Part shown: positions 9,546-25,045 of the stretch, one piece after another
Layout of the letters: each line of letters begins with the position of its first letter
Position numbering within the stretch: the stretch's first letter is position 1
NCBI GenBank assembly: GCA_017625695.1
Contig: JAGAKI010000079.1
Location: 2,312-66,311 of the forward strand
Length of the DNA stretch: 64,000 bases
Origin: Clostridia bacterium
Lineage (GTDB): Bacteria; Bacillota; Clostridia; UMGS1840
Direction of reading: 5' to 3'
Notes under the pieces: generated by a model
Told to the model about the DNA's origin: nothing
The model's input: the letters and a program-made list of their open reading frames with translations, nothing else
Database searches by the model: none
Made by a program: the position numbers and the translations under genes

Positions 9546-9944
9546 ATGGCTAAAAATTTAGAAGTATATCTTGGCACCGGCAGAAGAAAAAGCTCTGTAG
9601 CAAGAGTTCGTCTGGTTCCCGGTAAAGGTAACATCACCATCAATAAAAGAGATATTGACGATTATTTCGGTCTGGAAACCTTAAAATTAGTTGTTAGACA
9701 GCCCCTGAACTTAACCGCAACCGCAGGTCAGTTTGACGTTATCGTTAACGTATTCGGCGGCGGTGTTTCCGGTCAGGCTGGTGCAATCAGACACGGTATC
9801 ACCAGAGCGTTAATCAACTTCAACGCTGATTTGAAATCCGACCTGAAAAAAGCTGGTTTCGTAACCCGTGACCCGCGTATGAAGGAAAGAAAGAAATACG
9901 GCTTGAAAGCAGCTCGTCGTGCACCTCAGTTCTCAAAACGATAA
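9546..9944 (+). CDS. rpsI: 30S ribosomal protein S9
   Basis: [45 protein letters not shown]. Confidence 0.99.
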
Positions 9945-9960
9945 AAAAATTCAGTTTTTT

Positions 9961-9993
9961 ATTCCCACAAACCCAGTGTTTGTGGGAATTTTT
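9961..9993 (+). terminator. Hairpin terminator after rpsI (inside the element)
   Basis: attcccacaaac-ccagt-gtttgtgggaat followed by a T run. Confidence 0.7.
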
Positions 9994-10044
9994 CAGTTTT
10001 AAAGAACCGATAAAAACACATAAAAACTCATTAGTGACACACAA

Positions 10045-10061
10045 AAGATATACAAGTGATA
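10045..10061 (+). promoter_or_regulatory. Probable integrase arm-type site (left end)
   Basis: aagatatacaagtgata repeated exactly at 23248-23264, near the other end of the element. Confidence 0.65.
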
Positions 10062-10124
10062 CACACAAAAAAGCAAGCAAAAAACCAGGATTGAATCATC
10101 TTCAGTTCCTGGTTTTTATATAGC

Positions 10125-11174
10125 TTATATCAAATCAATTGCTTCAACAAGTTGCTGTATATCAAAATGTGTATATACTTTTTCAGTTAATGACATTGCA
10201 CCTGCATGACCCACGATACGCTTTATAATGGTTTGATTGACTTCCGCTTTTGCTAACAAAGAAATTGTTGTGTGTCTTGTATCATGTGGTAAATGTTGAA
10301 GTTCCATTTCTTGCATTAAGGGTTTCCAATACGAATCAAAATAATTTCTGTATGTGAAATGTTTTCCTTCAGGTGTGCAAACAAGATAGTCACACCCTTC
10401 TTTCTGCATCCATTTTTCAAAGAAAGGTAAAACTTTTTTGGAAATTGGAACCTTACGAATTCCAGATTCTGTTTTTGAAGCAATAACATCAAAATACCTT
10501 TCTTCCAGGTGAACATCCTGTTTTTTTAAATCTAATAATTCTGATATACGAACACCGCTGTAAATTAAAATCAAATAAATTTGAATATATTCATTGCGAT
10601 TGACATTATTCCATAAAGTTTGAATTTCTGATTCAGTGAATGGTTTATGTTTTTCTTCTTTTCCTTTTTCCTTGTGCTTAACAATATCAACAAATTTAGA
10701 ATAGTCTTTTTGACAAAGGTCATTTTCCATAGCAAATTGGTACAATTGATTGAAAAGAACTCTTAATTTTCGCAATGTGGGGTAATTTTTACCGCAAGTA
10801 TCAATTACACCTTGAAGATGCGTTTTCCTGATTTCAATGAATTTCATGCTATAAAGATTTTTGCATACAGCATAAGATGCTTTATATCCGTTTACATTTG
10901 AATGTGATATTGTTTCAAATTTTTCTGCTGACCATTTATCATATATTTCTGCAAAGGTTATATCATTGTTTATATCATATGGATTTGAATTGTATATAGC
11001 TAATGCGTTCAATGCTTCCTCTTTTGTTTCATAATATCCAATATATTGATATTTCCTTTTAAGTTTATCACCTTTTTCGTCAATTTCCCATGAGAGTGTT
11101 TTTCTTATTGCCCAGGGTTTTCTTCTATTTCCAGGCAATTTGTAAACTGAACCATATCCATTTGGTAGTTTCAT
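10125..11174 (-). CDS. Tyrosine recombinase / phage-type integrase
   Basis: MKLPNGYGSV N-terminus; catalytic motifs SGVRISELL, KT, HDTRHT, VGH, VYTH. Confidence 0.95.
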   Translation of the reverse strand: MKLPNGYGSVYKLPGNRRKPWAIRKTLSWEIDEKGDKLKRKYQYIGYYETKEEALNALAIYNSNPYDINNDITFAEIYDKWSAEKFETISHSNVNGYKASYAVCKNLYSMKFIEIRKTHLQGVIDTCGKNYPTLRKLRVLFNQLYQFAMENDLCQKDYSKFVDIVKHKEKGKEEKHKPFTESEIQTLWNNVNRNEYIQIYLILIYSGVRISELLDLKKQDVHLEERYFDVIASKTESGIRKVPISKKVLPFFEKWMQKEGCDYLVCTPEGKHFTYRNYFDSYWKPLMQEMELQHLPHDTRHTTISLLAKAEVNQTIIKRIVGHAGAMSLTEKVYTHFDIQQLVEAIDLI

Positions 11175-11322
11175 ATCAAATTCTTCCTTTCTGATTGACA
11201 AATCAAAAAAGAATTGATATAATAAATACATACCATTTCATTTTTGATTTGCTCACTTGCACTCATTTTGATTTGGTTACTTTCTGAATTCCCAGTGTTG
11301 CAGCACAGGGAATTCTTTTTAG

Positions 11323-11733
11323 TTAATTGTTGTTGGAATCATTTTCTGTTGCAGCAGAAGATGGTTCTTTTTTGTATTTTGGATGTATTGCCAAGTCAGC
11401 AACATATTGAACGGCTTTGGATTTACCTAAAGAATTTAATGTATCGAAATCATTCAACATTGCCAATGCATCTGACCCAAATGCTTTTTCAATTTCTTCT
11501 ATAAGTTTCACATCAGAGCGAAGTTTTTCTATATCCACTGTCAAATCAAATGGTGATACTCCCAGAACAGATGCAATATCTTCAATCACATTCCATGGTG
11601 CTTCTATTGAACCATTTTCATACTTTCTAATTGTAGCTTCCTTTTTTCCGATAGCTTCCGCAAGTTCTATTTGTGTCATTTTCATTTGTTTTCGAACAGC
11701 TTTAACCCGCTTTCCAAAGACAGTTTTATCCAT
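11323..11733 (-). CDS. XRE/cI-like HTH repressor
   Basis: GKRVKAVRKQMKMTQIELAEAIGKKEATIRKYENG. Confidence 0.9.
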   Translation of the reverse strand: MDKTVFGKRVKAVRKQMKMTQIELAEAIGKKEATIRKYENGSIEAPWNVIEDIASVLGVSPFDLTVDIEKLRSDVKLIEEIEKAFGSDALAMLNDFDTLNSLGKSKAVQYVADLAIHPKYKKEPSSAATENDSNNN

Positions 11734-11779
11734 AAATTCACTTCCTTTCACCTTTAAATGTGATTTCATTATATCACAA

Positions 11780-11884
11780 CCGATATTAAAAATCAAGTAT
11801 TTTCTAAAAGAATCTAAATATATCTATTGACAATATCGTTTTAAAGGTGTATAATATAACAAAAACGATATTTAAAATATCGGT
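11780..11884. promoter_or_regulatory. Divergent switch region with consensus rightward promoter and CGATATT operator-like repeats
   Basis: TTGACA (11827)-17 nt-TATAAT (11850); cgatatt/aatatcg repeats near 11782, 11832, 11866 and 11876. Confidence 0.75.
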
Positions 11885-11899
11885 ACAAGGGGTGAAAAT

Positions 11900-12139
11900 A
11901 TGAAAATAGATAATCAAAAGTTTGAAATCGCTATAGCAAATGCTTGTATGACATTTAGTGACTTATCAAAAAAATCAGGAATTTCACTATTCACCATCTC
12001 AAGAATGCAGGGTGATGTAAAAATAAGACCTGAAACTATTGGGAAAATTGCAAAAGCATTAAATGTAAAAGTTGAAGAACTGATTGAAACAACTGCTGCA
12101 ACAGTCAATCAGAACACCAGGAATTCAGAAAGTAATTAA
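11900..12139 (+). CDS. Cro-like HTH protein
   Basis: TFSDLSKKSGISLFTISRM..ETIGKIAKALNVKVEEL; divergent from the repressor. Confidence 0.85.
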   Translation: MKIDNQKFEIAIANACMTFSDLSKKSGISLFTISRMQGDVKIRPETIGKIAKALNVKVEELIETTAATVNQNTRNSESN

Positions 12140-12161
12140 AATGAAAGTGAGAGAATCAAAA

Positions 12162-12596
12162 ATGAAAACAAATCTTTTAGAAAAAATCAATCTTGAAGAA
12201 ATACTTGCCATCACATCATCAGGCACAAAAGGAAAACATTATGTAAATGTGACACTTCAAAACGGCGATATAATCAGACATTCCATGAATGATGCATTTG
12301 GAATCCATTATTGCAATGAATTCATTCGTTCCCTAAAAGTTTATGATGAAATATATCTTGAAGAATGTTTGCACAATCACATACATTTGTATGAGAAAAT
12401 CATAAGTGATTGCAATTACCTTATTCATATAAAAAAGGTTCTTGATTTATTACATAGACAAGACATCACCGCAAATCAAATATATTTATGTATATTAAAC
12501 AGAATACTTCCCAAACACAATGTATCATATGATGAAGCAATATTGCACAGACCATTGAAAGAATGGGTTCAGGAAGCTGTTACATATTTCAATTAA
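12162..12596 (+). CDS. Hypothetical protein (element early operon)
   Basis: Uninterrupted ORF between the Cro-like and primase genes; start could be 12141. Confidence 0.6.
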   Translation: MKTNLLEKINLEEILAITSSGTKGKHYVNVTLQNGDIIRHSMNDAFGIHYCNEFIRSLKVYDEIYLEECLHNHIHLYEKIISDCNYLIHIKKVLDLLHRQDITANQIYLCILNRILPKHNVSYDEAILHRPLKEWVQEAVTYFN

Positions 12597-12608
12597 GGCG
12601 GTGAGAAA

Positions 12609-14621
12609 ATGACGGAATTAAAACAAATTGCATCTATCCTATATGATGGCTTTTATTGTGGTGGCGGTGGTAGTGACGGAAATCCAAAAGTCAGAAAAGG
12701 AAAATCAAAACCTGCTTCTTTAGACTATGCGTTAAAAAATTTTCCTTATATTCTTGGAAAAATTAAAAACAACATTATTATAACAGATTATGATTCTGAT
12801 GAAACATTTCAAGCAAGATTTGCTATTGTGAAAGCTTTAGAGCAAAGCTGTATAGTAATTAAATCCCCACACAAAGGCGGTCATATCTATTGGTTCAACA
12901 GAAATCATTCATATACAGTTAGTAACAGTATAAATAAAACAATATTAACACTTTCCCCAGTTGATTATAAATGTGGAATAAAAATTGTTAAAAGCACTGG
13001 TGAAATCAAAGATTCAGATTGTTATGGGTGTTTATCAAATGATGATAAGACTTTAAGAAAGATACTATATATCAAAATCAATGATGATAATACACTTGAT
13101 GAACTTCCATTTTATGATTTACCAATGAAATCAGGAATAAAACATAACTTCCTTAATATGAAATCAGGTGATGGAAGGCAAGATGGATTGTTTACTTATA
13201 TGAACCCATTAAAAGCTGAAGGGTATTCTTATGAGCAATTCAGAATAGTTTCTGAACTTATTGATAAATTCATATTTTCAGAATCATTGGGTGATGAATT
13301 TGAAAATGCTATCAGAAAAGAAGCATGGGATTCAATCAATAGTTCAGCAAGTTCTGAATTTTTCAGGGGTAAAACTTTTTTACATGATAGATTTGCGGAA
13401 CATTTAAAAAATACTTATTACATTAGAAAAATAAATGGACAGCTTCAGATTTATAAAGATGGTGTGTATGTCAGCGGTAATGAAGAAATAGAAAAGTGCA
13501 TGTGCAAAGAAATCCCATCACTGACTGATGCAAAAAGAAAAGAAACTTTAAAGCAGCTTAATCTGATATGTGATGAAATTGTTATAAATGATAAGAATGC
13601 ACATATGATTGCATTCAGAAATGGTGTATTGAATATTTTGGATGATTCATTCACACCATTCACACCTGACCATGTTATCACAAACAGAATTGATTGGGAT
13701 TATAACCCACAGGCTTATGATGAACTGACGGATAAAACACTTGACAAGATTGCTTGCAATGATAAAAACATCAGGTCATTACTTGAAGAATGTGTAGGTT
13801 CATGTTTTTACAGGTCAAACACTCTTGCAGGTGGAAAAGCATTCATATTAACAGGAACAGGAAGCAACGGAAAGTCAACTTTTATTGAAGTTCTTCAGTC
13901 GATACTTGGTGAAAATAATTATTCTGTTTTGGATTTAAAAAGTTTATCTGACAGGTTTTCAACAATTATGATGTTTGGTAAGCTTGCAAATTTGGGTGAT
14001 GATATTAGTAGTGAATATATTGCTGATGTGTCAGTTTTCAAGAAAATAACCAGGGGTAATGAAATTGATGCAGAACAGAAAGGTCAACCGAAATTTAGTT
14101 TTAAACCTTATGTAAAACTGATTTTTTCTGCAAACAACATTCCCCGAATGGGAAGGGGTGACACATCAGCTGCACATGACAGATTGTTGATTATACCCTT
14201 TAATGCACACTTTTCAAAAAATGATGCTGATTATGATAATACAATAATATGGAAATTGCAAAGTCAGGAAGCTATGGAATATCTGATTCAATTAGGAATT
14301 CAGGGGTTAAAAAGAGTGCTTCAGAACAAGCAATATACACATTCTAACAAAGTTGATTCACAGCTTGATGAATACCGCATTGAAAACAACCCTATTCTTT
14401 CATTTGTTGAAGAAATTGGTGCTGATTCAATTGAAAATGAACCGACAAAAGATATTTTTACAAGGTATTGTGTTTACTGCTCACAAAATGGTTTTAAACC
14501 TGTTTCAAATATAAATTTTTCAAGACAGATATGCAATCAATTAAATTTGAAAACAGTTTCAAAAAAAGTAGGCGGAAAAAAATATCAAATCTTTATAAAA
14601 CAAGTACAAGATACAAGATAA
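12609..14621 (+). CDS. Phage/plasmid primase-helicase, P4/D5 family (SF3 helicase)
   Basis: D5_N-like IAFRNGVLNI...DWDYNP; Walker A GTGSNGKST; NLGDDIS; FSANNIP; N-terminal DYD...GGHIYW prim-pol-like motif. Confidence 0.9.
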   Translation: MTELKQIASILYDGFYCGGGGSDGNPKVRKGKSKPASLDYALKNFPYILGKIKNNIIITDYDSDETFQARFAIVKALEQSCIVIKSPHKGGHIYWFNRNHSYTVSNSINKTILTLSPVDYKCGIKIVKSTGEIKDSDCYGCLSNDDKTLRKILYIKINDDNTLDELPFYDLPMKSGIKHNFLNMKSGDGRQDGLFTYMNPLKAEGYSYEQFRIVSELIDKFIFSESLGDEFENAIRKEAWDSINSSASSEFFRGKTFLHDRFAEHLKNTYYIRKINGQLQIYKDGVYVSGNEEIEKCMCKEIPSLTDAKRKETLKQLNLICDEIVINDKNAHMIAFRNGVLNILDDSFTPFTPDHVITNRIDWDYNPQAYDELTDKTLDKIACNDKNIRSLLEECVGSCFYRSNTLAGGKAFILTGTGSNGKSTFIEVLQSILGENNYSVLDLKSLSDRFSTIMMFGKLANLGDDISSEYIADVSVFKKITRGNEIDAEQKGQPKFSFKPYVKLIFSANNIPRMGRGDTSAAHDRLLIIPFNAHFSKNDADYDNTIIWKLQSQEAMEYLIQLGIQGLKRVLQNKQYTHSNKVDSQLDEYRIENNPILSFVEEIGADSIENEPTKDIFTRYCVYCSQNGFKPVSNINFSRQICNQLNLKTVSKKVGGKKYQIFIKQVQDTR

Positions 14622-14823
14622 AATATAATGGGTACAAGATTAAACACACTCATTTTGTACTGCTTCAAAACCGCACGAAATCAAACTTTTTTGTTGCAGT
14701 ACAAGATGGTACAAGATGTTTTTAACTTCTTGTGAAATAAATAAAAAAAAATAAATACTCTAAAATTTTATTTTAAAAAAATAATATAATATATAATTTA
14801 ATTTATCTTGTACCATCTTGTAC
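14604..14823. other. Putative replication origin (GTACAAGAT iterons around an AT-rich stretch)
   Basis: Direct iterons at 14604, 14612 (partial), 14632, 14699 and 14709; inverted atcttgtac at 14805 and 14815; near-pure A/T at 14735-14805; directly after the primase gene. Confidence 0.75.
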
Positions 14824-14860
14824 TATTGAAAATTATTATTCAAAGAAAGGATTGAATTAA

Positions 14861-15169
14861 ATGAATATATCAGATGTTAAAAAGAACCATCCAACATTTC
14901 TGACCGATAATATATTGATAAATAAAGTCGGCAGAATTAACTACTATATTGACCCAAGAACAAGAATTGCTACTGATGGTGAGATACAGAAAGTAAAACC
15001 CATTGCATGGAATCATACATATTTTTGGATTGTATGCCCTTTCTGTCAAAAAATTCACCAGTATTCAATCATGCAGACCAGGAAAGATAAACATGTTGTA
15101 TATGCAAATTGTAAAGGCAGAATTAATAACGGAATTGACCAACAACCACTTTTGATTGATTCTATATGA
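14861..15169 (+). CDS. Small hypothetical protein with CPFC..H..C possible zinc ligands
   Basis: RBS GAAAGGA; WIVCPFCQKIHQY...ANC. Confidence 0.65.
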   Translation: MNISDVKKNHPTFLTDNILINKVGRINYYIDPRTRIATDGEIQKVKPIAWNHTYFWIVCPFCQKIHQYSIMQTRKDKHVVYANCKGRINNGIDQQPLLIDSI

Positions 15170-15283
15170 GCAGAAATCAAAGTGTTGTCAGATTTGTCAG
15201 TCCTTAAAAAAGGGAATCACAAGAAAAACACTTGCTGAATGGAAAAATAAGTATGGTGACATTTCCGACACCATAAAAGGAAG

Positions 15284-15484
15284 GTGAAGTACATGAATAA
15301 AGATAATTTGATACACAACAGCACCCGAACACATGAAGAATTAAGTGAAATGGGAAGAAAGGGCGGTGTTGCATCTGGTTTAGCCCGCCGTGCAAAGAAG
15401 GAACGCACACAGGATTTACAGGCAGTTGTAAACCGTTGCACATACAATGAAGTTATTGGAATGTTGCTGAAAAACAAGAAATGA
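15284..15484 (+). CDS. 66-aa KGG-motif protein resembling the N-terminus of some phage small terminases
   Basis: NLIHNSTRTHEELSEMGRKGGVASGLARR; RBS-like AAGGAAGG; start could be 15293. Confidence 0.55.
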   Translation: MKYMNKDNLIHNSTRTHEELSEMGRKGGVASGLARRAKKERTQDLQAVVNRCTYNEVIGMLLKNKK

Positions 15485-15705
15485 TAAAGCCCGAACAAAG
15501 CCCGATTATATATACATTTCGCACACCCTAAAAAGGGCGGGCGAAGTTGTTGACATTCAGGTTGAAAATTTGGATAAATTTTGATTTGAACAAGACTTTT
15601 CAAGACTTTTTAACAACAAAAAACCCACATAAACCCATATGAATCAAATGTTTTATATATGTTTGTCAGTATAAACAATCAAAATTATGAAGGGAATGAT
15701 GCAAT

Positions 15706-15978
15706 ATGGCAAAAGCAATAACTGATATTGAACTTACTGCGGTTATCGGTGAAGAATTATTCAAAAAATGTTTAGAAAAATTTCATGGTAGACAATATTA
15801 TTTTAAGAAAAAATCAAACCCCTTGCAGTTTAAAAACCAAAGAGAAAAAGAAGAATTTATCCATGATGCGTTTTTAAACGGATTGTCCTTTGAAGAAATA
15901 GGTGTAAAACTGCAAATTACCCCCGAATATGCAAGAAAGGTTTTTTATAAGCAGTTGCACCAAAAGAAAAACAGTTAA
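15706..15978 (+). CDS. Mor-like HTH transcription activator
   Basis: VIGEELFKKCLEKFHGRQYYF plus C-terminal HTH GLSFEEIGVKLQITPEYARKV. Confidence 0.6.
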   Translation: MAKAITDIELTAVIGEELFKKCLEKFHGRQYYFKKKSNPLQFKNQREKEEFIHDAFLNGLSFEEIGVKLQITPEYARKVFYKQLHQKKNS

Positions 15979-16211
15979 AACTGGCAATAGAAAATTTTAG
16001 AGAATATCCATATATTGTGCATATATATTTATTACAAGCACAATATATGGTATAATTAGGTATAATCATTGAATTGGTTGTGCCTTTTCTTTTTTGCCCT
16101 GAAATATCTTTATTTCTTACCTGTGACACACAAAATTAATACAAAACAGTGATTTTACAATGTGTTGTAATTATCACACTGATAATTTTAATACTGAAAG
16201 GATGATGAAAA

Positions 16212-16607
16212 ATGGAAAAATCAACAAACAGCACTGAACCAAACTGCACTGAACAAAACTACAACATTGAAGAATTTACAAAAGAATTAATAAGCATTTT
16301 CGGGAAGCTTAAACAGACACAATGGAATGATAAATTTATCAATCAATATTCTGCTTACAAAAGAATTCTTGACTTGTATGCAAATATGGGTGAGGTTCAC
16401 ATCAGGAATATGAAAAATGCAGTGGCTTATTTTAAACAAGAGCAACAAAAATATCATGACCTTTGTAAAGAATTGTTTACAGTTGCAAAAAACCTTAACC
16501 CCAAATTTGTTGATATTTCAGAACCAAAGCTTCAGCAACAGATGGATGATCTGCAAAAGATGATGCAAGTATTGGAAAAGCAGATGGGTGAAACAAATGT
16601 ATCATGA
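16212..16607 (+). CDS. Hypothetical helical protein
   Basis: RBS GAAAGGA; first gene of a tightly packed operon. Confidence 0.65.
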   Translation: MEKSTNSTEPNCTEQNYNIEEFTKELISIFGKLKQTQWNDKFINQYSAYKRILDLYANMGEVHIRNMKNAVAYFKQEQQKYHDLCKELFTVAKNLNPKFVDISEPKLQQQMDDLQKMMQVLEKQMGETNVS

Positions 16608-16860
16608 ATATATTAAACAGCGGCTTAATACAATTACAGCTATTGTGAATAAACGGAACAAAGAAATACACCATATATCAAATTTAAAGTATAGAGTAAT
16701 TTCAGGCAGAAAACACATCCCTATTACAGACAAAATGAGAAAATCAATGATTCGGAAGGTTAAAGAAAAATATAGTTCTCAAATTTCAAAGCTATATGAC
16801 GAAATAAACGAACAACTAAATTCTTTAAATCTTCCAATATTAGAAAATCCATATAAATGA
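16597..16860 (+). CDS. Hypothetical basic protein
   Basis: Overlaps the previous stop; K/R-rich. Confidence 0.55.
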   Translation: MYHEYIKQRLNTITAIVNKRNKEIHHISNLKYRVISGRKHIPITDKMRKSMIRKVKEKYSSQISKLYDEINEQLNSLNLPILENPYK

Positions 16861-16877
16861 AAGGCGGTAATTTAAAA

Positions 16878-17603
16878 ATGAATATTACATTGACTAAAGA
16901 AACAAATAAGCTTATTGAAGCACACAGAGCTATTGACAAGAAAGGTGCAGATGATATGTGGGCAGTGTTGGATAAATGGAAAGAACCTTCCATGATAAAT
17001 AAATATCAGCCTGAAGCATTAATTTCAGAATGTAATGCTGAACTGAATGAAGTTATTTCCGAATGCAGAAAAGCTGATACTTTATTGAATCAAAAATTAA
17101 AAAATGAAGTTTCAAATGCAAAAGCAAAAGTCATTCCTTGCTGCATTACATCCATTACAAAACCAAATGATTATGCAATGCAAGTAAATAATGCATTACA
17201 TTTTATCACACTTGAAGGTGAAGAACTCACTGATGAAAAAGCCTATAACATTCTGAAGCAGTTTATTGAAGATTATGAACAGATGGAATTGTTTGCAGCA
17301 GTTGTTGAAAAACAGGTGGGTACAGAAAAATTTATAAATGCAAATGGTACTTGCTTTTTCAAGAAAACTTTTGGTAAATACAGCAGAGCAAAGGCAATTA
17401 TAAATTTGTTTAATGAGATTGAAGCTTTATCAGAGAATCTTTTTATCATCCCTAAAGTGGCAAGTAATACATTCATTATAAATGCACATTATTTCAATGT
17501 AGTTAAGGATGGTTATGCAGAAATTGCAGATGAACAAAATATTTTAAACTTGCTTGCCGAACTGGATATTGCACTAAAGGATGTAATTGAACCAATAAAG
17601 TAA
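16878..17603 (+). CDS. Hypothetical helical protein
   Basis: Uninterrupted ~240-aa ORF with RBS AAGGCGG; start could be 16857. Confidence 0.65.
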   Translation: MNITLTKETNKLIEAHRAIDKKGADDMWAVLDKWKEPSMINKYQPEALISECNAELNEVISECRKADTLLNQKLKNEVSNAKAKVIPCCITSITKPNDYAMQVNNALHFITLEGEELTDEKAYNILKQFIEDYEQMELFAAVVEKQVGTEKFINANGTCFFKKTFGKYSRAKAIINLFNEIEALSENLFIIPKVASNTFIINAHYFNVVKDGYAEIADEQNILNLLAELDIALKDVIEPIK

Positions 17604-17619
17604 TTAAGGGGTGAAGCTG

Positions 17620-18540
17620 ATGACAAATGAAGAATTGGTTGAGCAAATACAATCAGGAATAAATGTTCAAAACAATATGGGTTTGCTGTATGAGCAGAAC
17701 AGAAATTTTATTTATAAATTGGCTTTACCCTATTCTAATTATGTTGAAATTGATGATTTAATGCAAGAAGCATATTTTGGACTTAAAAGAGCAGTTGAAG
17801 GTTTTGATTCAAGTAATAAATTCAAATTTTTAACATATGCAGAAGTTAAAATAAAATCAGCAATGCAGCGGTATTACTATAATCATGGATTGACAAAGCG
17901 AATATCGGTTCATACCCTTGAATTGATACACAAATATCATAGGTTCAGGAAAGATTTTTACAACAAAAATAATGCGTATCCATCTGAAGAACAAATTCTT
18001 AATGAACTTCATATAACAGCAAAAAAACTTAAAGAACTGGAAACAGTCATTCATTCAGAACATTGTCAAAGTATGAATGATATTATTCCAGGAACTGAAG
18101 ATATTACACTTGAAGAAAGCATTGCAGATGAATATGATTTAGAAAATGATGTGACTGATAGAATCTGCACTGAAGCAGTAAATAAATCTATTTGGGAAGC
18201 TGTAAAAGAATTAGATAAAAGAAGTTCTGAAATAATAATTGGCAAATATAAAAACGGATTGACATTAGAAAAAATTTCAGAATTGTTGAACATATCAAGA
18301 ACAAGGGTGCAGCATATGGAACAATTTGCATATAAAACTTTATATGATAAAAAAACCATTATGGAAGCTGCTGAATTTTATGGTTATGATTCAGCAGCTT
18401 CTTATCATTATGGTGTCAGTAGATTTAAAAACACTTTCACATCATCAACAGAATATGTTGCGATAAAAAACATTACTTTACAAGAGAAAATGAAAAAGTT
18501 AGATAATAAACTTAAAAAAATTATGGATGGGCGGTTGTAA
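17620..18540 (+). CDS. Sigma-70 family RNA polymerase sigma factor (element-encoded)
   Basis: MTNEELV, DDLMQEAYFGLKRAVEGFD..FLTYA (region 2), TLEESIAD, TLEKISELLNISRTRVQHME (region 4). Confidence 0.88.
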   Translation: MTNEELVEQIQSGINVQNNMGLLYEQNRNFIYKLALPYSNYVEIDDLMQEAYFGLKRAVEGFDSSNKFKFLTYAEVKIKSAMQRYYYNHGLTKRISVHTLELIHKYHRFRKDFYNKNNAYPSEEQILNELHITAKKLKELETVIHSEHCQSMNDIIPGTEDITLEESIADEYDLENDVTDRICTEAVNKSIWEAVKELDKRSSEIIIGKYKNGLTLEKISELLNISRTRVQHMEQFAYKTLYDKKTIMEAAEFYGYDSAASYHYGVSRFKNTFTSSTEYVAIKNITLQEKMKKLDNKLKKIMDGRL

Positions 18541-18869
18541 TGAGCATGAAAGAAAAACTATACCAAATTAAACTTGCATACAAGTTTGTTGAATTTTACA
18601 AAAAAGATATTGAATGGTGTAATAAGCAAATTGAAAAATCAATTGCATATCGTGATTCTTTATCAACTGAATGTGACCAGTATATTGTAAAAATCAATAA
18701 TTTTCTTGCTGCTGTTGAACAGTTGCCTGAAGCATGGCAAACAATTATATTAAGAATATATATCGAAGGTGCGACAATAGAAAATATAGCTTCAAGAAAT
18801 AATTGTACCGTTGATGATATTATAAACATTCATGACTTGGCTTTGCAAAAGCTTGAAACATTAATCTGA
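18540..18869 (+). CDS. ArpU/RinA/DUF1492-like late transcriptional regulator
   Basis: AAVEQLPEAWQTIILRIYIEGATIENIA...IHDLALQKL, a sigma-region-4-like HTH. Confidence 0.65.
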   Translation: MSMKEKLYQIKLAYKFVEFYKKDIEWCNKQIEKSIAYRDSLSTECDQYIVKINNFLAAVEQLPEAWQTIILRIYIEGATIENIASRNNCTVDDIINIHDLALQKLETLI

Positions 18870-18930
18870 TAATAACTGTTTTTACAGATTATTATAAATA
18901 CTATTTAGCAGAAAGGGGGTGTAAAGTAAT

Positions 18931-21900
18931 ATGAGTAAAATTTCTACCATAATCGAACTTCAGGATAGAATGACCGCCCCATTGAACAACATGGCTAATG
19001 CAATGCAATCAACAATAAGTGTTGCAAATGATTTGAACAACACTGGGATTGATTTAAATGTTGACAATACAACATCAAAAATTTCAGATTTAGTTCAGCA
19101 ATTGCATAGTGTTGAAGCAATACAAGATGATATTTGTGCCAATGCTGAAAATATGTATATCATACCAAAAGATATGCAAAATGACATACGAGATGCCAAT
19201 GCAGAAATTCATAGATTAAAAGCTGCTTTAGAATTTGCTGCTTCTCCTGACATGGATGCAAGTTCAGCAATTAAACAATATGATTCAATTCAAAATTCTA
19301 TCGAAGAATTAATTGAAAAACAAGGTGCATTAAATTCAAAGATGGCTTCATCCCCATTTCAGACAGGAACACAAGCAACCCCTGTCACATGGAATTCAAA
19401 TGGTTTTGATGTGTTTACAACAAGCGGTGCAGAAAGATATGAACAGGAAGTTCAATCTTTGAATCAATACTTGCAACAGTTGTATGGAACACAGCAACGA
19501 ATCACACAACAGGCGGTCAACACTGATTTATTCCCTGAAAACATGGTTGCAGACCTGACCCACATGCAGGGTAAGATGGAAGCAATCAGGGCGAAAGTTC
19601 AGCAAATTGAGCAGAACCCATTGAATATGGGTAGTGATGAAGCTAACAGTCAGCTTGAACAGTTAAGAAGTCAGTTGCATCAGATGATTGATGCACAAAA
19701 TGATTTGAATAATGCAGTCAATGACATGGATGTTTCTGCTGCAAATTCAGCATACCAAAGACTTTCTTCAACAATCAACACAACTGAAGCACAAATCAGG
19801 GATAATGTTGACGAACAAGGCAGGTTCACAAATGAGGTTAAAAACAGTGAAAATGCTGCTTCAGGTTTAATGTCAACAATTAAAGGTGTTGTTGCTGCTT
19901 ATGCTACAATTCAGACTGCAAAAATGGTCATTGATGTTTCTGACACTTTGACACAGACAACTGCAAGACTGAACATGATGAATGATGGACTTCAGACCAC
20001 TGAACAGCTTCAGCAAATGATTTTTGCTTCAGCTGAAAGGTCAAGGGGTTCATATCAAGCAACAGCAGATACTGTTGCAAAATTGGGGTTGAATGCAAGT
20101 GATGCTTTTAATTCAACACAAGAGATTGTCACATTTGCAGAGCAGTTGAATAAGCAGTTTATAATTTCAGGTGCATCCATTGAAGAAATGAAAAATTCAA
20201 CATTGCAATTAACACAGGCTTTGTCAAGCGGTGTTTTGCGTGGTGATGAATTGCGTTCTGTATTTGAACAAGCACCAATGATTGTTCAAACCATTGCTGA
20301 TTATATGGATGTTCCAATTGGTAAAATCAGAGAAATGGCAGCTGATGGTCAAATTACAGCAAACATTGTAAAAAATGCAATGTTGGATGCTGTTGATGAA
20401 ACGAATGCAAAATTTGAATCAATGCCAAAAACCTTTGGTCAGATTTGGACATCTATGCAGAATCGGGCTTTGATGGCTTTTCAACCTATACTTCAAAGAC
20501 TAAATAAAATTGCAAACAGCAAGGCATTCAATACATTTGTCAACAATGCAGTTTCTGCTTTAACAGTGTTAGCAGGTGCATTGACAACTGTTTTTGATAT
20601 TGTTGTCAAGGTCGGTGCATTCTTTGCAGATAACTGGTCAATTATTGCACCGATAATATACGGAATCACAGCAGCGGTTGCTGCTTATACAGCGGTTATG
20701 CTGATATACAATGCAGTTCAGGCAATAAGCAATTTACAGAAGAAAATAGCTGCAATTTCAGCAGTCATGCATGGTGCAGCAATAACGCAGGAAATGATTG
20801 CAACCACTGGCTTGACAGCAGCACAGCTTCAATTCAATGCAGCCTTGTATGCTTGCCCTTTGACATGGATAATCCTTTTAATCATAGCAATTATTGCATT
20901 GTTTTACATTGTTATTGCAGTAATAAATGATATTTGCGGAACATCAGTCAGTGCAACAGGAATAATCATGGGATTGCTTGCAACACTTGGTGCTTATATA
21001 TTCAACTGTATTGCATACTGGTGGAACATAATTTCAGCATTCATTGAATTTTTCGTGAATGTTTGGAAAAATCCTGAATATGCAATCAAAGCACTTCTTG
21101 TGAATTTAATCAATGCCTTCCTGAACTTCTGCTTGGCAATTGTTCAAGGAAATGGTGCTGCAATCGGTGTGATTGTCGGTGCATGGTATGCGTTTTGTCA
21201 GATAATTTCAAACATTGTTGCAGCGGTTTATAACTTCTTTGCAATGTGTATTGAATGGATTGTCAACGCATGGAATCAGTGTGTGTTTGCGGTTCAAACA
21301 TTACTGTATAACATAGCTGATGCAGCTTTGGGTGCAGCACAAGGTGCTGCTTCTTCAATGGAAGCTGCTGCAACTGCAATTGGAAATGCTTTTGTAAGCG
21401 GTGCAAATGCTGCAATCAATGCAATTAACTGGATAATTGATGCAATTAACATGATACCTGGTGTAAATATTGGGAAGTTTAGTCAATTAGGACCTGTCAG
21501 CTTCAATGCTGTTTCAACCAAAATTGGTGATATGCGAAGCAATCTTTCCCAACCAACTGCACCTGAAACATTCACCCTTGACAGAATGGACTTTGGAAGT
21601 ATTTCTGAAGCTTATGACATGGGTAATCAAGCAGGACAGGATTTTGCAGCAGGATTTGAAGGAACAGTTGCAGATATTCAGTCAGGGATGCAAGACTGGC
21701 TTGGTGAAACACCTGATGATTATTGGGAAGCACCAAAGCTTGATTATATCAATCTTGGGGATGCTGCAAAAGCAGGTTATGAATTCGGTTCAGGTGTTGA
21801 AGATAAACTTTCAAATTTTGGAAATCTTGACACTGGTGACATGGAAAACATGCTAAATGACATTGCATCAAATACTGGTGATACTGCTAAAAATAGCGGT

Positions 21901-22143
21901 AATGCAGCAGATGGTGCAGGTAAAGCAGCAGATGCTTTGGATTGTACGGATGAAGAATTGCAATATTTAAGAGATATTGCAGAAAGGGATGTCATAAACA
22001 GATTCACAACCGCTGAATTGAAAGTTGAAATTCATTCAGAAAACAACATCAATTCTGATATGGACATTGATGGTGTTGTTGAAAGGTTTACTGAAAAAGT
22101 TTCTGAAGAACTTGAAGCTGTTGCTGAAGGGGTGCATGTATAA
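18931..22143 (+). CDS. Phage tail tape measure protein (1070 aa)
   Basis: Tape-measure domain [36 protein letters not shown]; hydrophobic and Trp-periodic middle; C-terminus [26 protein letters not shown] recalling Clostridial myophage TMPs. Confidence 0.92.
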
Positions 22144-22178
22144 TTAAATAAGCTTAAATTCATCTTTTCTTTATAGTC

Positions 22179-22223
22179 AAATACCCTTTGTAAACTTTAT
22201 AGATTTTGCAAAGGGTATTTTTT
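22179..22223 (+). terminator. Intrinsic terminator after the TMP gene
   Basis: aaataccctttg...caaagggtattt followed by a T run. Confidence 0.8.
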
Positions 22224-22287
22224 CATTTCAGTTGATTTATTCATCAAAATATGCTATAATTATGTAAAAAGATTGAAGGTGTTTAAA

Positions 22288-22476
22288 ATGCGTGTGTACG
22301 AATCATGGATGCAGTATATTGTTTGTTATCCCTGTTCTGATGAAGAAGGTTTTGACGGAATTCATGATGGTGGTTGGAAAGGTGTCAGAGATGATGCACC
22401 TGATGAAGCCAAACAAGCATTTCAAAAATTTCTTGAAGAAGAAAAAGAAAATCTAAAAAATCATGTAAAAGTTTGA
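22288..22476 (+). CDS. Small hypothetical protein
   Basis: Follows promoter TTGATT(22232)-17-TGnTATAAT(22255). Confidence 0.55.
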   Translation: MRVYESWMQYIVCYPCSDEEGFDGIHDGGWKGVRDDAPDEAKQAFQKFLEEEKENLKNHVKV

Positions 22477-22487
22477 AGGTGAATTTG

Positions 22488-22889
22488 ATGGATGAATTAA
22501 AGAAGATGTCTGATAAGGAATTATCTATCAGAATGGTTATGTATATTGAACGAGTTCAGAAACTTATGGATTCTGTATCAGAAATAATGGATGGAAAAGG
22601 AACAAAAATGTTGATTAATTCCATTCATCATGAATATAAAGCAATTAAACAAGCAGTAAAAGATGATGCACATTATTTGAATCTGACTATGAACAGAAGG
22701 ATTGATGAAGGTTCTGAACTGTATAATGGATTTTTCAAACCTTCCATCAGTGAAGCTGCTGCATTCGGTTTTGCTTCATCTACAAATAGCAGGATAGATT
22801 TCAAGTTCTATGATTCACTTGAAGAAGCAAGATATAAGTTAACTAAATTCTATACTTTGGAAGAATGGAAAAAGGTTATTGAAAGTTAA
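22488..22889 (+). CDS. Hypothetical protein
   Basis: Uninterrupted 133-aa ORF with RBS-like GAAGGTG. Confidence 0.65.
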   Translation: MDELKKMSDKELSIRMVMYIERVQKLMDSVSEIMDGKGTKMLINSIHHEYKAIKQAVKDDAHYLNLTMNRRIDEGSELYNGFFKPSISEAAAFGFASSTNSRIDFKFYDSLEEARYKLTKFYTLEEWKKVIES

Positions 22890-22910
22890 TTTTCAAAATG
22901 GTGTATATGT

Positions 22911-23219
22911 ATGAGAAACATATCAATTGAAATTTCTGAACAAACTAAAAATATTATTGAACTTGCGACAGGAACAAGCATTGAAAATATACTTGAGCAA
23001 ATTAAATTTGAAATATTAAAGGATAATGAAGCACATGGTAAAATTTCAGTTTGTGAAGCAGCAAAAAGAATGAATAAATCACCACAATTTGTCAGAATGG
23101 GATTGCAGCAAGGCACACTTCCCTTTGGTGCAGCTGTAAAAATGCCAGGTGGGAAATATTCATATTATATCAGTCCTAAAAAGTTTTATGAATATGTGGG
23201 AAATACTGAAAATAACTGA
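22911..23219 (+). CDS. Excisionase-like winged-helix DNA-binding protein
   Basis: ISVCEAAKRMNKSPQFVRMGLQQGTLPFG..YSYYISPKKF; lies next to the right att site. Confidence 0.65.
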   Translation: MRNISIEISEQTKNIIELATGTSIENILEQIKFEILKDNEAHGKISVCEAAKRMNKSPQFVRMGLQQGTLPFGAAVKMPGGKYSYYISPKKFYEYVGNTENN

Positions 23220-23401
23220 ATTCTTAAAAAGTTCAGCTTTTTACCATAAGATATACAAGTGATATACAAAAAGTGTTGTAAGGCTTGAAAATAGGCAGTT
23301 TGGAATTATCCAAACGTTAATCGTTGGAACAATTTTATATGCACAGTTCAAAATCCCGCAGAGAAAAGTACGGGGTTAATAAGGAAGTATTTTCCGCAAG
23401 A

Positions 23402-23744
23402 TTAGAAATAGTCTTGCGGAATTTCCTTTTTTTCGGGAATAAACTCCTTTTGCGGAATAAATTCACCGATGAAATTAAATATGATCTGTATTTTCTGTAC
23501 TCTTTGTCCGCTTGATTTATCGGGAGCGTGAACAACAATTTTTTTTGATAAACTCATTTACGATTGTCGGTGTTAATTCTTTAATACCGACATATTTTTT
23601 GACAATTTCGTGAAACTGCTTAAAGTCAATTTGTTGCCTGTCAAAAATGTTTGTTTCTTCTTCAAAAACTCTAATCTGTTTCTGTAATTCTGCCTGTTCG
23701 GTTTCGTATTCATTTAATAAACGAATTTCGTTGTAAAAATACAA
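23402..23744 (-). pseudogene. C-terminal fragment of a TnpX-like serine recombinase (DUF4368-like), frameshifted
   Basis: KKYVGIKELTPTIVNEFIKK, then a frameshift in an A run continuing IVVHAPDKSSGQRVQKIQIIFNFIGE; no N-terminal part or RBS seen. Confidence 0.75.
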
Positions 23745-23953
23745 CCTTGGTGGAGAAAATTTTTGTTATTTTTCTTTCATATAGGTAACATCTAAAATTG
23801 AATTTTTACACACAGAAAACCAAAAATTTTTTCTCTCATTTAAGACACAATCAAAGGAAGAAAATTATGCAAAGTTAAAAAATATTTATTGTCATTTCGC
23901 TGAAAATTATATTTTAATATTGTATTTATAGGCATAAAGTGGTATAATTATAA

Positions 23954-24173
23954 TGTCACATAAAATCAGAATTTAATAATGCGAAATTTTTTCTTTTTAT
24001 CCAAGGGGGTATTATACCCTTTTCTTTTAATATCTTCACGTTTGAATAGGTAAAAATGCAAATTCCACGTGGAGATATAGAAAGTTTAATTTCGCTCTAT
24101 TTTGATTTTGTGTGACAACAAATCGGAGTTTGCATTTTTCGGTGTGCAGCTTCGATAGTTGCACACCTTTTTT
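23954..24173 (+). promoter_or_regulatory. Structured leader or sRNA ending in an intrinsic terminator
   Basis: TGnTATAAT at 23940-23948; stems 23954-23988/24088-24117 and 24052-24066/24125-24139; terminator ggtgtgcagc..gttgcacacc-tttttt. Confidence 0.5.
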
Positions 24174-24260
24174 AATTTGTAATAAAGTGTAAGGGAGGTT
24201 TTAATTTTTGTTTCGCAAATTAGAAGGTGCAATACACAAATTGAAATGGAGGAACAAAAA

Positions 24261-24965
24261 TTGAAAAAGACATTAAAAGGTTATTTGTTAGGATTTATAA
24301 GTGCAACACTTATGGTGGGGTGTGTCACAGCTTTTGCTGCGAATACAACTACCCTTTACAATGTAATTGCCAACGGAATTAAAATTGTTGTTGACGGACA
24401 GAAACTCAATCCTACAGATGTAAACGGAAATAAAGTTGAGCCAATTATTTACAATGGCACTACATATTTACCTGTAAGAGCAGTTGCTAACGCTCTTGGT
24501 AAGGCGGTTTATTGGGATGGTCCTAATTACACAGTTTATCTTGGAGATATGAACGGAGGATTGGAATATCCAACTGAAGAATTAAGCATAAATGATGATA
24601 TAGGCGGTGGAAGTTGGACTGAATCAGATGTTTTAAAAGATAATTTAGGAAATACATATTCAAGAGCTATATATCCTTGGTTGAGTGCACGAGTAGATTC
24701 AAGTAGAAGATATGAAAAAATATGTAATATGAAATTCTCAAGTTTTAAAGGAACAATTTATGTTATGAATGGTAGTAACACTAATGGAAGTACCCAGTTC
24801 CTTATCAAAGCAGATGGTAAAACTATATATACATCGCCTGAGATAACAAAATCATCTGCTCCAATAGACTTTGATGTTGACATAACAGGTTGCTATAATT
24901 TGCAAATAGTTTGTACTGGTGATCCTGATTTTGTTTGCATAGGTAATGGTGGTTTTTATCAATAA
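24261..24965 (+). CDS. Secreted protein with copper-amine-oxidase-like N-terminal (stalk) domain and NPCBM/NEW2-like domain
   Basis: Signal peptide ..TAFA; IIYNGTTYLPVRAVANALG; FLIKADGKTIYTSP..FDVDITG. Confidence 0.8.
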   Translation: MKKTLKGYLLGFISATLMVGCVTAFAANTTTLYNVIANGIKIVVDGQKLNPTDVNGNKVEPIIYNGTTYLPVRAVANALGKAVYWDGPNYTVYLGDMNGGLEYPTEELSINDDIGGGSWTESDVLKDNLGNTYSRAIYPWLSARVDSSRRYEKICNMKFSSFKGTIYVMNGSNTNGSTQFLIKADGKTIYTSPEITKSSAPIDFDVDITGCYNLQIVCTGDPDFVCIGNGGFYQ

Positions 24966-24971
24966 TGTTTA

Positions 24972-25045
24972 GCAAAAAAGAACAGGCAAGTCAAGGGTAA
25001 ATACACGAGCTACGCTCACCCTTGACAAACCTGTTCTTTTTTTGC
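24972..25045. other. Long inverted repeat with GTCAAGGG...CCCTTGAC core
   Basis: gcaaaaaagaacagg-caa-gtcaagggt ... acccttgac-aaa-cctgttctttttttgc; resembles hairpins recalled from Clostridial mobile elements. Confidence 0.55.

Follow-up and report, generated by a model that had tools for sequence, protein, structure and literature searches.

Within a 64,000-nucleotide stretch of a Clostridia bacterium genome (NCBI GenBank assembly GCA_017625695.1, contig JAGAKI010000079.1; the whole stretch is hereafter "the window"), a discrete island of 13,376 bp carries a full-length gene for a tape measure protein (TMP) as its sole recognisable virion gene. On balance, we think it probable that this element is an integrated phage satellite, one of a large family in gut Clostridia, that puts a helper-matched TMP into contractile tails built by its helper phage. 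Comparison among hosts and relatives indicates that the element is mobile between hosts and inserts at the 3' end of the ribosomal protein gene rpsI, that its TMP is constrained and exchanges sequence with phages, and that the family can occur as a circle. The window's own genome (G000) is a metagenome-assembled genome (MAG), 98% complete and in 84 contigs.

The island spans positions 9945–23320, directly downstream of rplM–rpsI (Ribosomal_L13, Ribosomal_S9), and has a GC content of 30–32% vs. 42–46% in its flanks. It is integrated at the last 12 nt of rpsI (9546–9944), and its ends were set by comparison with two other loci, L011 and L018. A scan of a genome collection found the same element after rpsI in another Clostridia MAG (L011), where every gene is 95–100% identical at the amino acid (aa) level, while the rpsI and rplM of that host are only 74 and 63% identical, respectively, to those of the window. 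In the alignment of these two loci identity starts at the rpsI stop codon and stops near 23309, and contigs of one gut sequencing run (X8) diverge from the window sequence at 23307. The rpsI 3'-end repeat at the right end matches at 10 of 12 positions in the window and at 11–12 of 12 in L011 and L018. A near-identical element beside diverged rpsI and rplM genes, together with this repeat, therefore argues for insertion at the rpsI 3' end and for a recent move between distantly related hosts. The integrase gene adjoins attL and the 12-nt repeat lies at both element ends, as expected of a satellite, and the ends so derived fit the coordinates 9930–23320 proposed in a preliminary description of this DNA. 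The features of the two ends are as follows.

9933..9944, plus strand: attL core, the last 12 nt of rpsI; the window and L011 differ within rpsI and are near-identical from the stop codon onward.
23309..23320, plus strand: attR core, where the rpsI 3' end is repeated with a 10/12 match; L011 and L018 have the repeat at the right end of their element as well.
10042..10069, plus strand: left arm repeat, 25/28 identical to 23245–23272 (direct repeat D11).
23245..23272, plus strand: right arm repeat, the partner of 10042–10069.

A core of 17–20 nt of the arm repeat is kept at both ends of the diverged element L018, and these repeats are possible Int/Xis arm sites, i.e., candidates by sequence and position.

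More distant copies lie at the same site. A diverged syntenic copy after rpsI (L012, probably in the same assembly as L018) has an integrase 53%, a primase 45%, a sigma factor 53%, a TMP 67% and a last open reading frame (ORF) 66% identical to those of the window, and a still more distant copy (L048) likewise follows rpsI. The whole element is also covered by contigs of four independent gut runs (bovine, goat, other); most of the pieces listed differ from the window by ~1%, and the 5' half of the TMP gene by ~4–8%. Among the genomes of 61 relatives searched for the TMP, five (G000 included) held any match and none a full-length close one.

Between its ends, the element holds the following genes and sites.

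10125..11231, minus strand: tyrosine integrase, 368 aa (PF00589, 2.3e-20; phrog_1, 6.5e-52).
11323..11796, minus strand: helix-turn-helix (HTH) repressor of the HTH_3 type, 157 aa (PF01381, 3.5e-13).
11900..12139, plus strand: cro-like HTH protein, 79 aa (PF13443, 7.1e-9).
12084..12596, plus strand: o170, no family match; syntenic in L012 and 32–34% identical there.
12609..14621, plus strand: primase-helicase of the D5/P4 family, 670 aa (DUF5906, D5_N, Pox_D5; phrog_864, 3.3e-143; TIGR01613).
14600..14825, no strand assigned: predicted replication origin with GTACAAGAT iterons, in direct and inverted copies around an AT-rich core.
14861..15169, plus strand: o102, weak zinc-ribbon match; 61% identical in L012.
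15706..15978, plus strand: o90a, no family assigned from family scans and synteny.
16212..17603, plus strand: o131, o90b and o248, the start of the sigma–TMP gene string; no family match, with o90b and o248 conserved in the family described below.
17611..18540, plus strand: sigma-70 family factor, 309 aa, with regions 2 and 4 (PF04542, PF04545; phrog_351, 1.3e-40; TIGR02937 above cut-off).
18540..18869, plus strand: o109, 109 aa, resembling sigma region 4 or an HTH protein (sub-threshold Sigma70_r4; phrog_36, 7.7e-6).
18931..22143, plus strand: TMP, 1070 aa (Pfam TMP_3, 3.8e-46; phrog_1068, 1.7e-246; TIGR02675 above cut-off).
22179..22226, plus strand: intrinsic terminator after the TMP gene, a hairpin at 22179–22220 and, behind it, a U run (-18.5 kcal/mol, z -3.4).
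22273..22889, plus strand: o67 and o138, no family assignment, with a promoter-like site of their own at 22232–22260.
22911..23219, plus strand: 102-aa ORF (phrog_6058, function unassigned, 2.3e-21; 66% identical in L012).

Searches with hidden Markov model (HMM) libraries thus returned the content and order given in the preliminary description, i.e., integrase, repressor/cro, primase-helicase, origin, small ORFs, sigma factor, TMP and terminator. Divergent promoter-like sites serve the repressor (11796–11768, minus strand) and cro (11827–11855, plus strand; the latter a 12/12 consensus match), and this divergent pair, followed by the primase and then the origin, makes up a module like that of phage-inducible chromosomal islands (PICIs). 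The primase-helicase scores 187 bits on TIGR01613, vs. a cut-off of 108.7, and the origin called earlier was recovered in the same place, with its GTACAAGAT iterons around the AT-rich core. Downstream, o131–o90b–o248–sigma–o109–TMP form a tightly packed gene string with the terminator at its end; this hairpin, also reported earlier, was overlooked by a simple terminator scan because its loop exceeds the length which that scan allows. The sigma-70 factor, with 201 relatives, is the hallmark gene of the family, and o248 aligns with a ~250-aa protein of other subfamilies at an hhalign probability of 86%. Two of the earlier labels could not be confirmed: the "ArpU-like" ORF at 18540–18869 resembles sigma region 4 and a transcriptional regulator in PHROGs only weakly, and the "Xis-like" ORF at 22911–23219 matches only phrog_6058 and has no Pfam or NCBIfam match. 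The latter is a possible excisionase.

Besides the TMP, the four libraries searched (Pfam, PHROGs, PADLOC, NCBIfam) revealed no gene for capsid, portal, sheath, tube, baseplate or lysis proteins in the element, no hidden structural gene among its uncharacterised ORFs, and no match of any ORF to terS, cpm, ppi or similar packaging or capsid-redirection genes, with small uncharacterised ORFs remaining. Seventeen profile HMMs, built from head and tail genes of related helper-type phages and run on the six-frame translation of the element, gave no match besides the TMP and no gene debris, and so the claim that no other virion gene is present stands. The head, sheath, tube, baseplate and lysis genes that would flank the TMP in a PBSX-like prophage, and that are always present in phage contexts, are absent here, as is, by hhalign and profiles, any XkdN-like tail assembly chaperone or baseplate hub. 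The ORF o109 was considered as such a chaperone and rejected (hhalign probability below 1%). No relaxase or conjugation genes turned up in general library scans of the element and its family, and the primase, while of the P4 family, is accompanied by no psu, sid or delta match in those general scans, no search having been aimed at these three. For o248, a fold search of the Atlas gave a best TM-score of 0.43 and a word-based homologue search returned only o248 itself; AlphaFold models were all-helical and of low confidence (o138, pLDDT 40, uninformative; o131, pLDDT 61). Short satellite–phage matches in the head module (92–99.5% nt identity), entertained as mimicry of a scaffold C-terminus, were dropped as evidence of capsid redirection: they are small ORFs of unassigned function (DUF7675/phrog_6473, phrog_29156), turn up in just 8 of the 73 phage loci, and the window has none of them.

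The TMP itself ties the element to contractile-tailed phages. Among isolated phages, the nearest TMPs are those of Clostridioides difficile myophages (CDMH1, phiC2, phiMMP01), with 35–38% identity over residues 240–1066, and the closest TMP of all—83% identical at the aa level over its full length—lies on a 12.1-kb myophage fragment in IMG/VR (L013). There it is preceded by sheath, tube and XkdN-like chaperone genes and followed by XkdP/XkdQ, baseplate and fibre genes, a context that agrees with the myophage-type partner envisaged in the preliminary description and suggests that the partner phages are contractile-tailed, with a PBSX/Xkd-like tail module. At the nucleotide level, 19381–22144 is 94.6% identical to L013 with homology ending at the TMP stop codon, and it includes exact shared runs of 515 nt (19552–20066) and 695 nt (20836–21530). 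Between these exact runs, two patches (20067–20280 and 20731–20880) are only 67–69% identical, and the first 450 nt of the gene are essentially unrelated to L013 (the N-terminal ~140 residues are 32% identical). A mosaic of this kind is what one would expect if an incoming phage and a resident element had recently undergone gene conversion. The GC content of the TMP part is 37–39% vs. 30% for the rest of the element. The first divergent patch behaves like a polymorphic cassette, and the four gut runs all depart from the window sequence there at identical positions.

A wider sample of TMPs shows repeated exchange of this kind. A second scan, seeded with a TMP alignment, added 80 loci, mostly full PBSX-like head and tail operons, and a FastTree phylogeny was built from 108 distinct TMPs no shorter than 600 aa (what remained of 123 rows once identical sequences were merged and shorter ORFs and the window copy, L001, were removed), labelled by context as 70 phage, 32 satellite and 6 unclear. 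Satellite and phage TMPs interleave on this tree, with 14–15 label changes, at least 12 of which are forced by well-supported branches. Several satellite lineages each adjoin a particular phage lineage, e.g., the 1064-aa TMP of the L034 type, which is 93% identical to the adjoining 1065-aa TMP of phages L196 and L198. The dN/dS check proposed in the preliminary description (here by the Nei–Gojobori method) gives 0.21 for the window TMP vs. L012 (dS 0.96) and 0.19 vs. L011, and values of 0.13–0.33 were obtained in six other satellite–phage pairs; by this measure satellite TMPs are under purifying selection. The higher overall value against L013 (0.57) arises because a barely alignable N-terminus is combined with near-zero divergence elsewhere.

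The element is one of many. An alignment of 30 sigma relatives was used to scan metagenome and IMG/VR contigs and the best 80 loci from each were taken; the two collections overlap, so that the sigma-seeded loci are not all independent. A sigma ORF is present in 154 of the loci kept, 98 of which hold at least 2 kb of downstream sequence, and in 40 of these 98 a TMP gene follows within 3 kb. The shared order is integrase (minus strand), repressor (minus strand), cro, a primase of 630–670 aa, small ORFs, a ~250-aa protein, sigma factor, one or two small ORFs and TMP, with TMPs of 637–1126 aa and integrase-to-TMP spans of 8.2–13.7 kb; clustering at 95% identity sorts the 32 distinct TMPs from satellite contexts into 20 groups. 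Profiles for portal, scaffold, major capsid, sheath and tube matched in 0 of 55 family loci. Other virion genes do occur: of these 55 loci, 19 have a head-tail adaptor (phrog_615, 4e-39 in one), 13 an XkdN-like chaperone, 5 an XkdR-like protein and 4 a second head-tail protein (profile ht3), while XkdP/Q or baseplate wedge genes are rare; the extras in some relatives are inner or connector virion parts. One relative from a gut metagenome (L023, 1–11691) has a 55-nt terminal overlap with its primase gene split across the ends and, as assembled, is an 11.6-kb circular element with integrase, switch, primase, sigma factor and TMP. By this comparison the window element is an instance of a recurrent PICI-like layout, not a single deletion product, and the recurrence of this architecture, which the preliminary description proposed to look for, is borne out by L011, L012, L048 and the 40 of 98 sigma loci. 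The preliminary description had named beforehand, as signs against a satellite, descent from a complete prophage by one deletion, relaxed selection on the TMP and capsid or tail genes hidden among the uncharacterised ORFs; no deletion product, no relaxed selection and no such hidden genes were found.

Several variations within the family were noted. Terminal overlaps of 64–127 nt are present in five more sigma-bearing contigs (L099, L123, L142, L144, L158). In 35 loci an ORF of ~142 aa lies between sigma and TMP; it was tried as an XkdN-like chaperone and rejected (hhalign probability below 1%). A subfamily typified by L034 (9398–14902; also L035, L037, L040, L093, L108, L110, L113, L122) carries a chaperone and adaptor set, the order after sigma in L034 being the 142-aa ORF, an XkdN-like chaperone, the 1064-aa TMP, a head-tail adaptor (phrog_615) and a 130-aa DUF7675 protein; the chaperone is a separate 143-aa gene (9846–10277), distinct from the ~142-aa ORF, and the DUF7675 gene contains a 202-nt stretch 99.5% identical to phages L196 and L198. 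Some sigma-bearing elements have no TMP (L033, L038, L042, L112, L117, L063, L083, L084), and the slot it would occupy is empty or holds a ~335-aa ORF, a 1140-aa ORF or a string of ORFs of 546, 336, 218 and 442 aa; the position after sigma appears to be a variable cargo slot. In L022 (13564–14866), L021 and L100 a 654-aa TMP is followed by an XkdR-like gene, and L022 additionally has baseplate wedge (bpW) and baseplate J-like genes, with XkdP and XkdQ skipped; L022 is possibly a hybrid, or else a satellite whose tail set is larger. A 109-aa ORF after the TMP in L243 (12473–12802) and L246 (8981–9310) shares 95–96% nt identity over 136–208 nt with the 75-aa ORF phrog_29156, which is located behind the gene for the minor head protein in phages L193, L194 and L236.

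If the element is a satellite of this kind, helper infection or induction would lead to its excision and to replication from its origin, and its own sigma factor would direct transcription of the o131–o90b–o248–sigma–o109–TMP operon. The satellite TMP would then be built into tails of helper sheath, tube and baseplate proteins (i.e., chimeric tails), which would secure tails for satellite transfer at a possible cost to the helper. Since the window element has no chaperone gene, it would rely on that of the helper. Substitution of the TMP into helper tails, altered injection or a dominant-negative action, as envisaged in the preliminary description, is a hypothesis drawn from family-level gene content and from analogy with PLE11 of Vibrio cholerae, a satellite whose TMP replaces the phage TMP in particles with tails otherwise built by phage ICP1, as judged by western blot and mass spectrometry (PMC12987554). 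By a scheme like that of PLE11, a small protein of the satellite would block the helper TMP while the satellite variant escapes; this is speculative here, and the divergent patches and small ORFs would be compatible with it. More tentatively, and with some doubt, we propose that the element represents an undescribed satellite family of gut Clostridia in which the TMP is the one constant morphogenetic gene, driven by the element's own sigma factor and kept helper-matched by ongoing gene conversion.

A number of observations weigh against chimeric tails. Among the contigs of the four gut runs, none revealed an attP joint or an empty-site joint, and no terS, cos or pac candidate was identified in the element. 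The co-resident prophage with a related TMP that the preliminary description suggested looking for did not appear: in G000 there is no second TMP, and a panel of 179 related-phage proteins found homologues only among the genes of the element itself, plus a few host matches that are unrelated; the other two host MAGs (G066, G067) have no second TMP and no L013-like sheath, with only a distant sheath (26% identity) in G067. No resident helper was thus found in any of the three, possibly because these genomes are MAGs and the helper was left unbinned. Likewise, a profile used without a positive control found no homologue of the satellite sigma factor in five helper-like phage records, two of them ~95% complete. 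The window element is without the chaperone carried by 13 relatives and by PLEs, and its TMP is nearly that of L013, while the PLE TMP is only 20% identical to that of ICP1, so that a benefit of substitution is not evident. The evidence for induction and packaging by a helper, finally, is indirect, namely sequence exchange with a phage, a circular relative and the same element in two hosts, and the particle composition is a prediction.

Some of the same observations would suit a different role. In an anti-phage decoy, a dominant-negative TMP would co-assemble with phage tails or titrate the phage chaperone and spoil helper tails, to the protection of the host population. The TMP is near enough to phage TMPs for co-assembly, yet divergent in its N-terminal ~140 residues and two internal patches, the element lacks a chaperone of its own, and defences that target TMPs are known, i.e., Tab and Rta (PMC10884400 and PMC12987554, respectively). 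This explanation nevertheless fits less well than chimeric tails with the transfer evidence and the added genes of relatives, and we consider it unlikely: the element occurs near-identically in two hosts that are far apart and one relative is circular, both of them signs of efficient horizontal transfer, and such transfer requires tails that work; the chaperone and head-tail adaptor of relatives look like tail building, not blocking; and repeated import of helper sequence makes the TMP more helper-like. Were the element instead an integrative, self-replicating island that moves without phages, its TMP would be cargo for some other use or an often re-acquired passenger. The missing packaging gene or site and the missing helper in three host MAGs would be natural in that case, and islands with P4-type primases are not all satellites, but family scans turned up no relaxase or conjugation gene, and the TMP is full-length, under purifying selection and interchangeable in sequence with the TMPs of working phages, while relatives hold further virion parts. 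We regard such non-phage transfer as distinctly improbable.

That no terS or pac site was found would also be accounted for if the TMP gene were a recombination handle, i.e., homology through which the element travels in co-integrates with its helper. The exact shared runs are ample substrate for homologous recombination and the TMP is the one constant virion gene, always matching a phage lineage. On the contrary, the satellite–satellite dN/dS of 0.2 at a dS near 1, along with intact frames in the TMPs compared, argues for protein function, and a co-integrate would add 13 kb to a ~40 kb genome and was found in none of the 73 phage-context loci, which makes this explanation highly improbable in our view. 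We give almost no credence to a prophage remnant, decaying after a large deletion with the TMP surviving by chance. While the layout (integrase, switch, replication, late activator, tail gene) resembles a reduced phage and the family is probably of phage descent, the same architecture recurs in at least 20 diverged lineages, an identical element occupies two hosts, a circular form exists, dN/dS is 0.2, and the six-frame profile search found no gene debris.

The element can be set beside several known systems. In PICIs (including SaPIs), which measure 10–15 kb, the integrase lies at one end, the repressor and cro genes diverge, an iteron origin follows the primase-helicase, and the insertion site is fixed; classical PICIs carry genes for capsid size or packaging (terS, cpm, ppi) and no tail gene. 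The window element is like them in size, integrase, switch, primase–origin order, fixed site and want of capsid, tail and lysis modules, and unlike them in having a TMP, together with its own sigma factor, in place of genes of the terS/cpm/ppi type. Tail modules of the PBSX/phiC2 type (L013 and the 73 phage-context loci) share the TMP family and recombine with window-type TMPs, but place the TMP between an XkdN-like chaperone and XkdP/XkdQ, whereas here it stands after sigma and before a terminator. PLEs (PMC12987554) are also integrative satellites of a contractile-tailed phage with a TMP of their own, and a chaperone occurs in PLEs and in some relatives of the window element. They differ in having a lytic helper (ICP1) and a Vibrio host, where the window element belongs to Gram-positive gut Clostridia and a temperate PBSX-like helper type; in that the window element has the TMP only, with no chaperone, baseplate hub or recognised Rta, and a sigma factor heading its late string; and in that the PLE TMP is remote from that of ICP1, while the window TMP is 83% identical to a phage TMP and shares exact runs with it. 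No sequence relation between PLEs and the window element was seen, or sought, beyond the common TMP family.

Predicted tmp genes have also been noted in PLE-like elements and, outside Vibrionaceae, in cf-PICIs (PMC12987554). The latter are thus a further likeness, but encode capsid and packaging proteins of their own, none of which were found in the window element. In Mycolicibacterium, the EPIPs are reported to be TMP-encoding satellites whose tail lengths differ from those of the helper; among their genes the authors of the preprint (PMC12822802) also list terS, a serine integrase, and genes for an adaptor and a stopper of the head-tail joint, a scaffold and a capsid protein. Their hosts are actinobacterial and their helpers siphophages. 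The remark in the preliminary description that PLEs interfere with tails was correct in substance; since the PLE work (PMC12987554) was published in 2026, the chimeric-tail idea itself is no longer new, and satellite-encoded TMPs and chimeric tails were already published as a concept in 2025–2026. What is new here is the gut-Clostridia family, the sigma-headed late string, the rpsI site in this branch, a virion set of TMP only and the mosaic identity with helper TMPs. A literature search found no description of Clostridial TMP-bearing satellites or of a sigma–TMP element, supplements and figures lying outside its scope and the tables of PMC12987554 possibly listing overlapping Gram-positive elements.

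Before 2025–2026, satellites were thought to use helper tails unchanged; PLEs were then the first reported chimeric-tail family, with wider use only suggested. The present locus and its relatives add a case that is independent and far simpler (the TMP alone), in another phylum and in ruminant and human gut. Recent and repeated TMP exchange between satellites and helpers would allow uncultured satellites to be paired with their helpers from sequence alone, and raises a tractable question, namely what a satellite gains by supplying a near-copy of its helper's tape measure. If the proposed reading is true, tail-core replacement would be an old and widespread strategy of Gram-positive satellites, independent of Vibrio PLEs, the TMP alone would be the smallest gene set for claiming helper tails, and the mosaic patches would mark a satellite–helper contest over the TMP, e.g., by way of a TMP-targeting inhibitor among the small ORFs.

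Other traces of islands lie nearby. Low GC (30–37%) extends past attR through window positions 23321–25000, where short minus-strand ORFs without a family match (23335–23744) are followed by a gene for a 239-aa protein with Cu_amine_oxidN1 and NPCBM domains (24246–24965); this segment is possibly what is left of a second island that used this site. On the same contig, outside the window, a second integrase gene (G000:C71:143008-144066) encodes a protein that shares 32–34% identity with the integrases encoded at the sigma-bearing loci L068 and L076, and may mark another island in the same genome.

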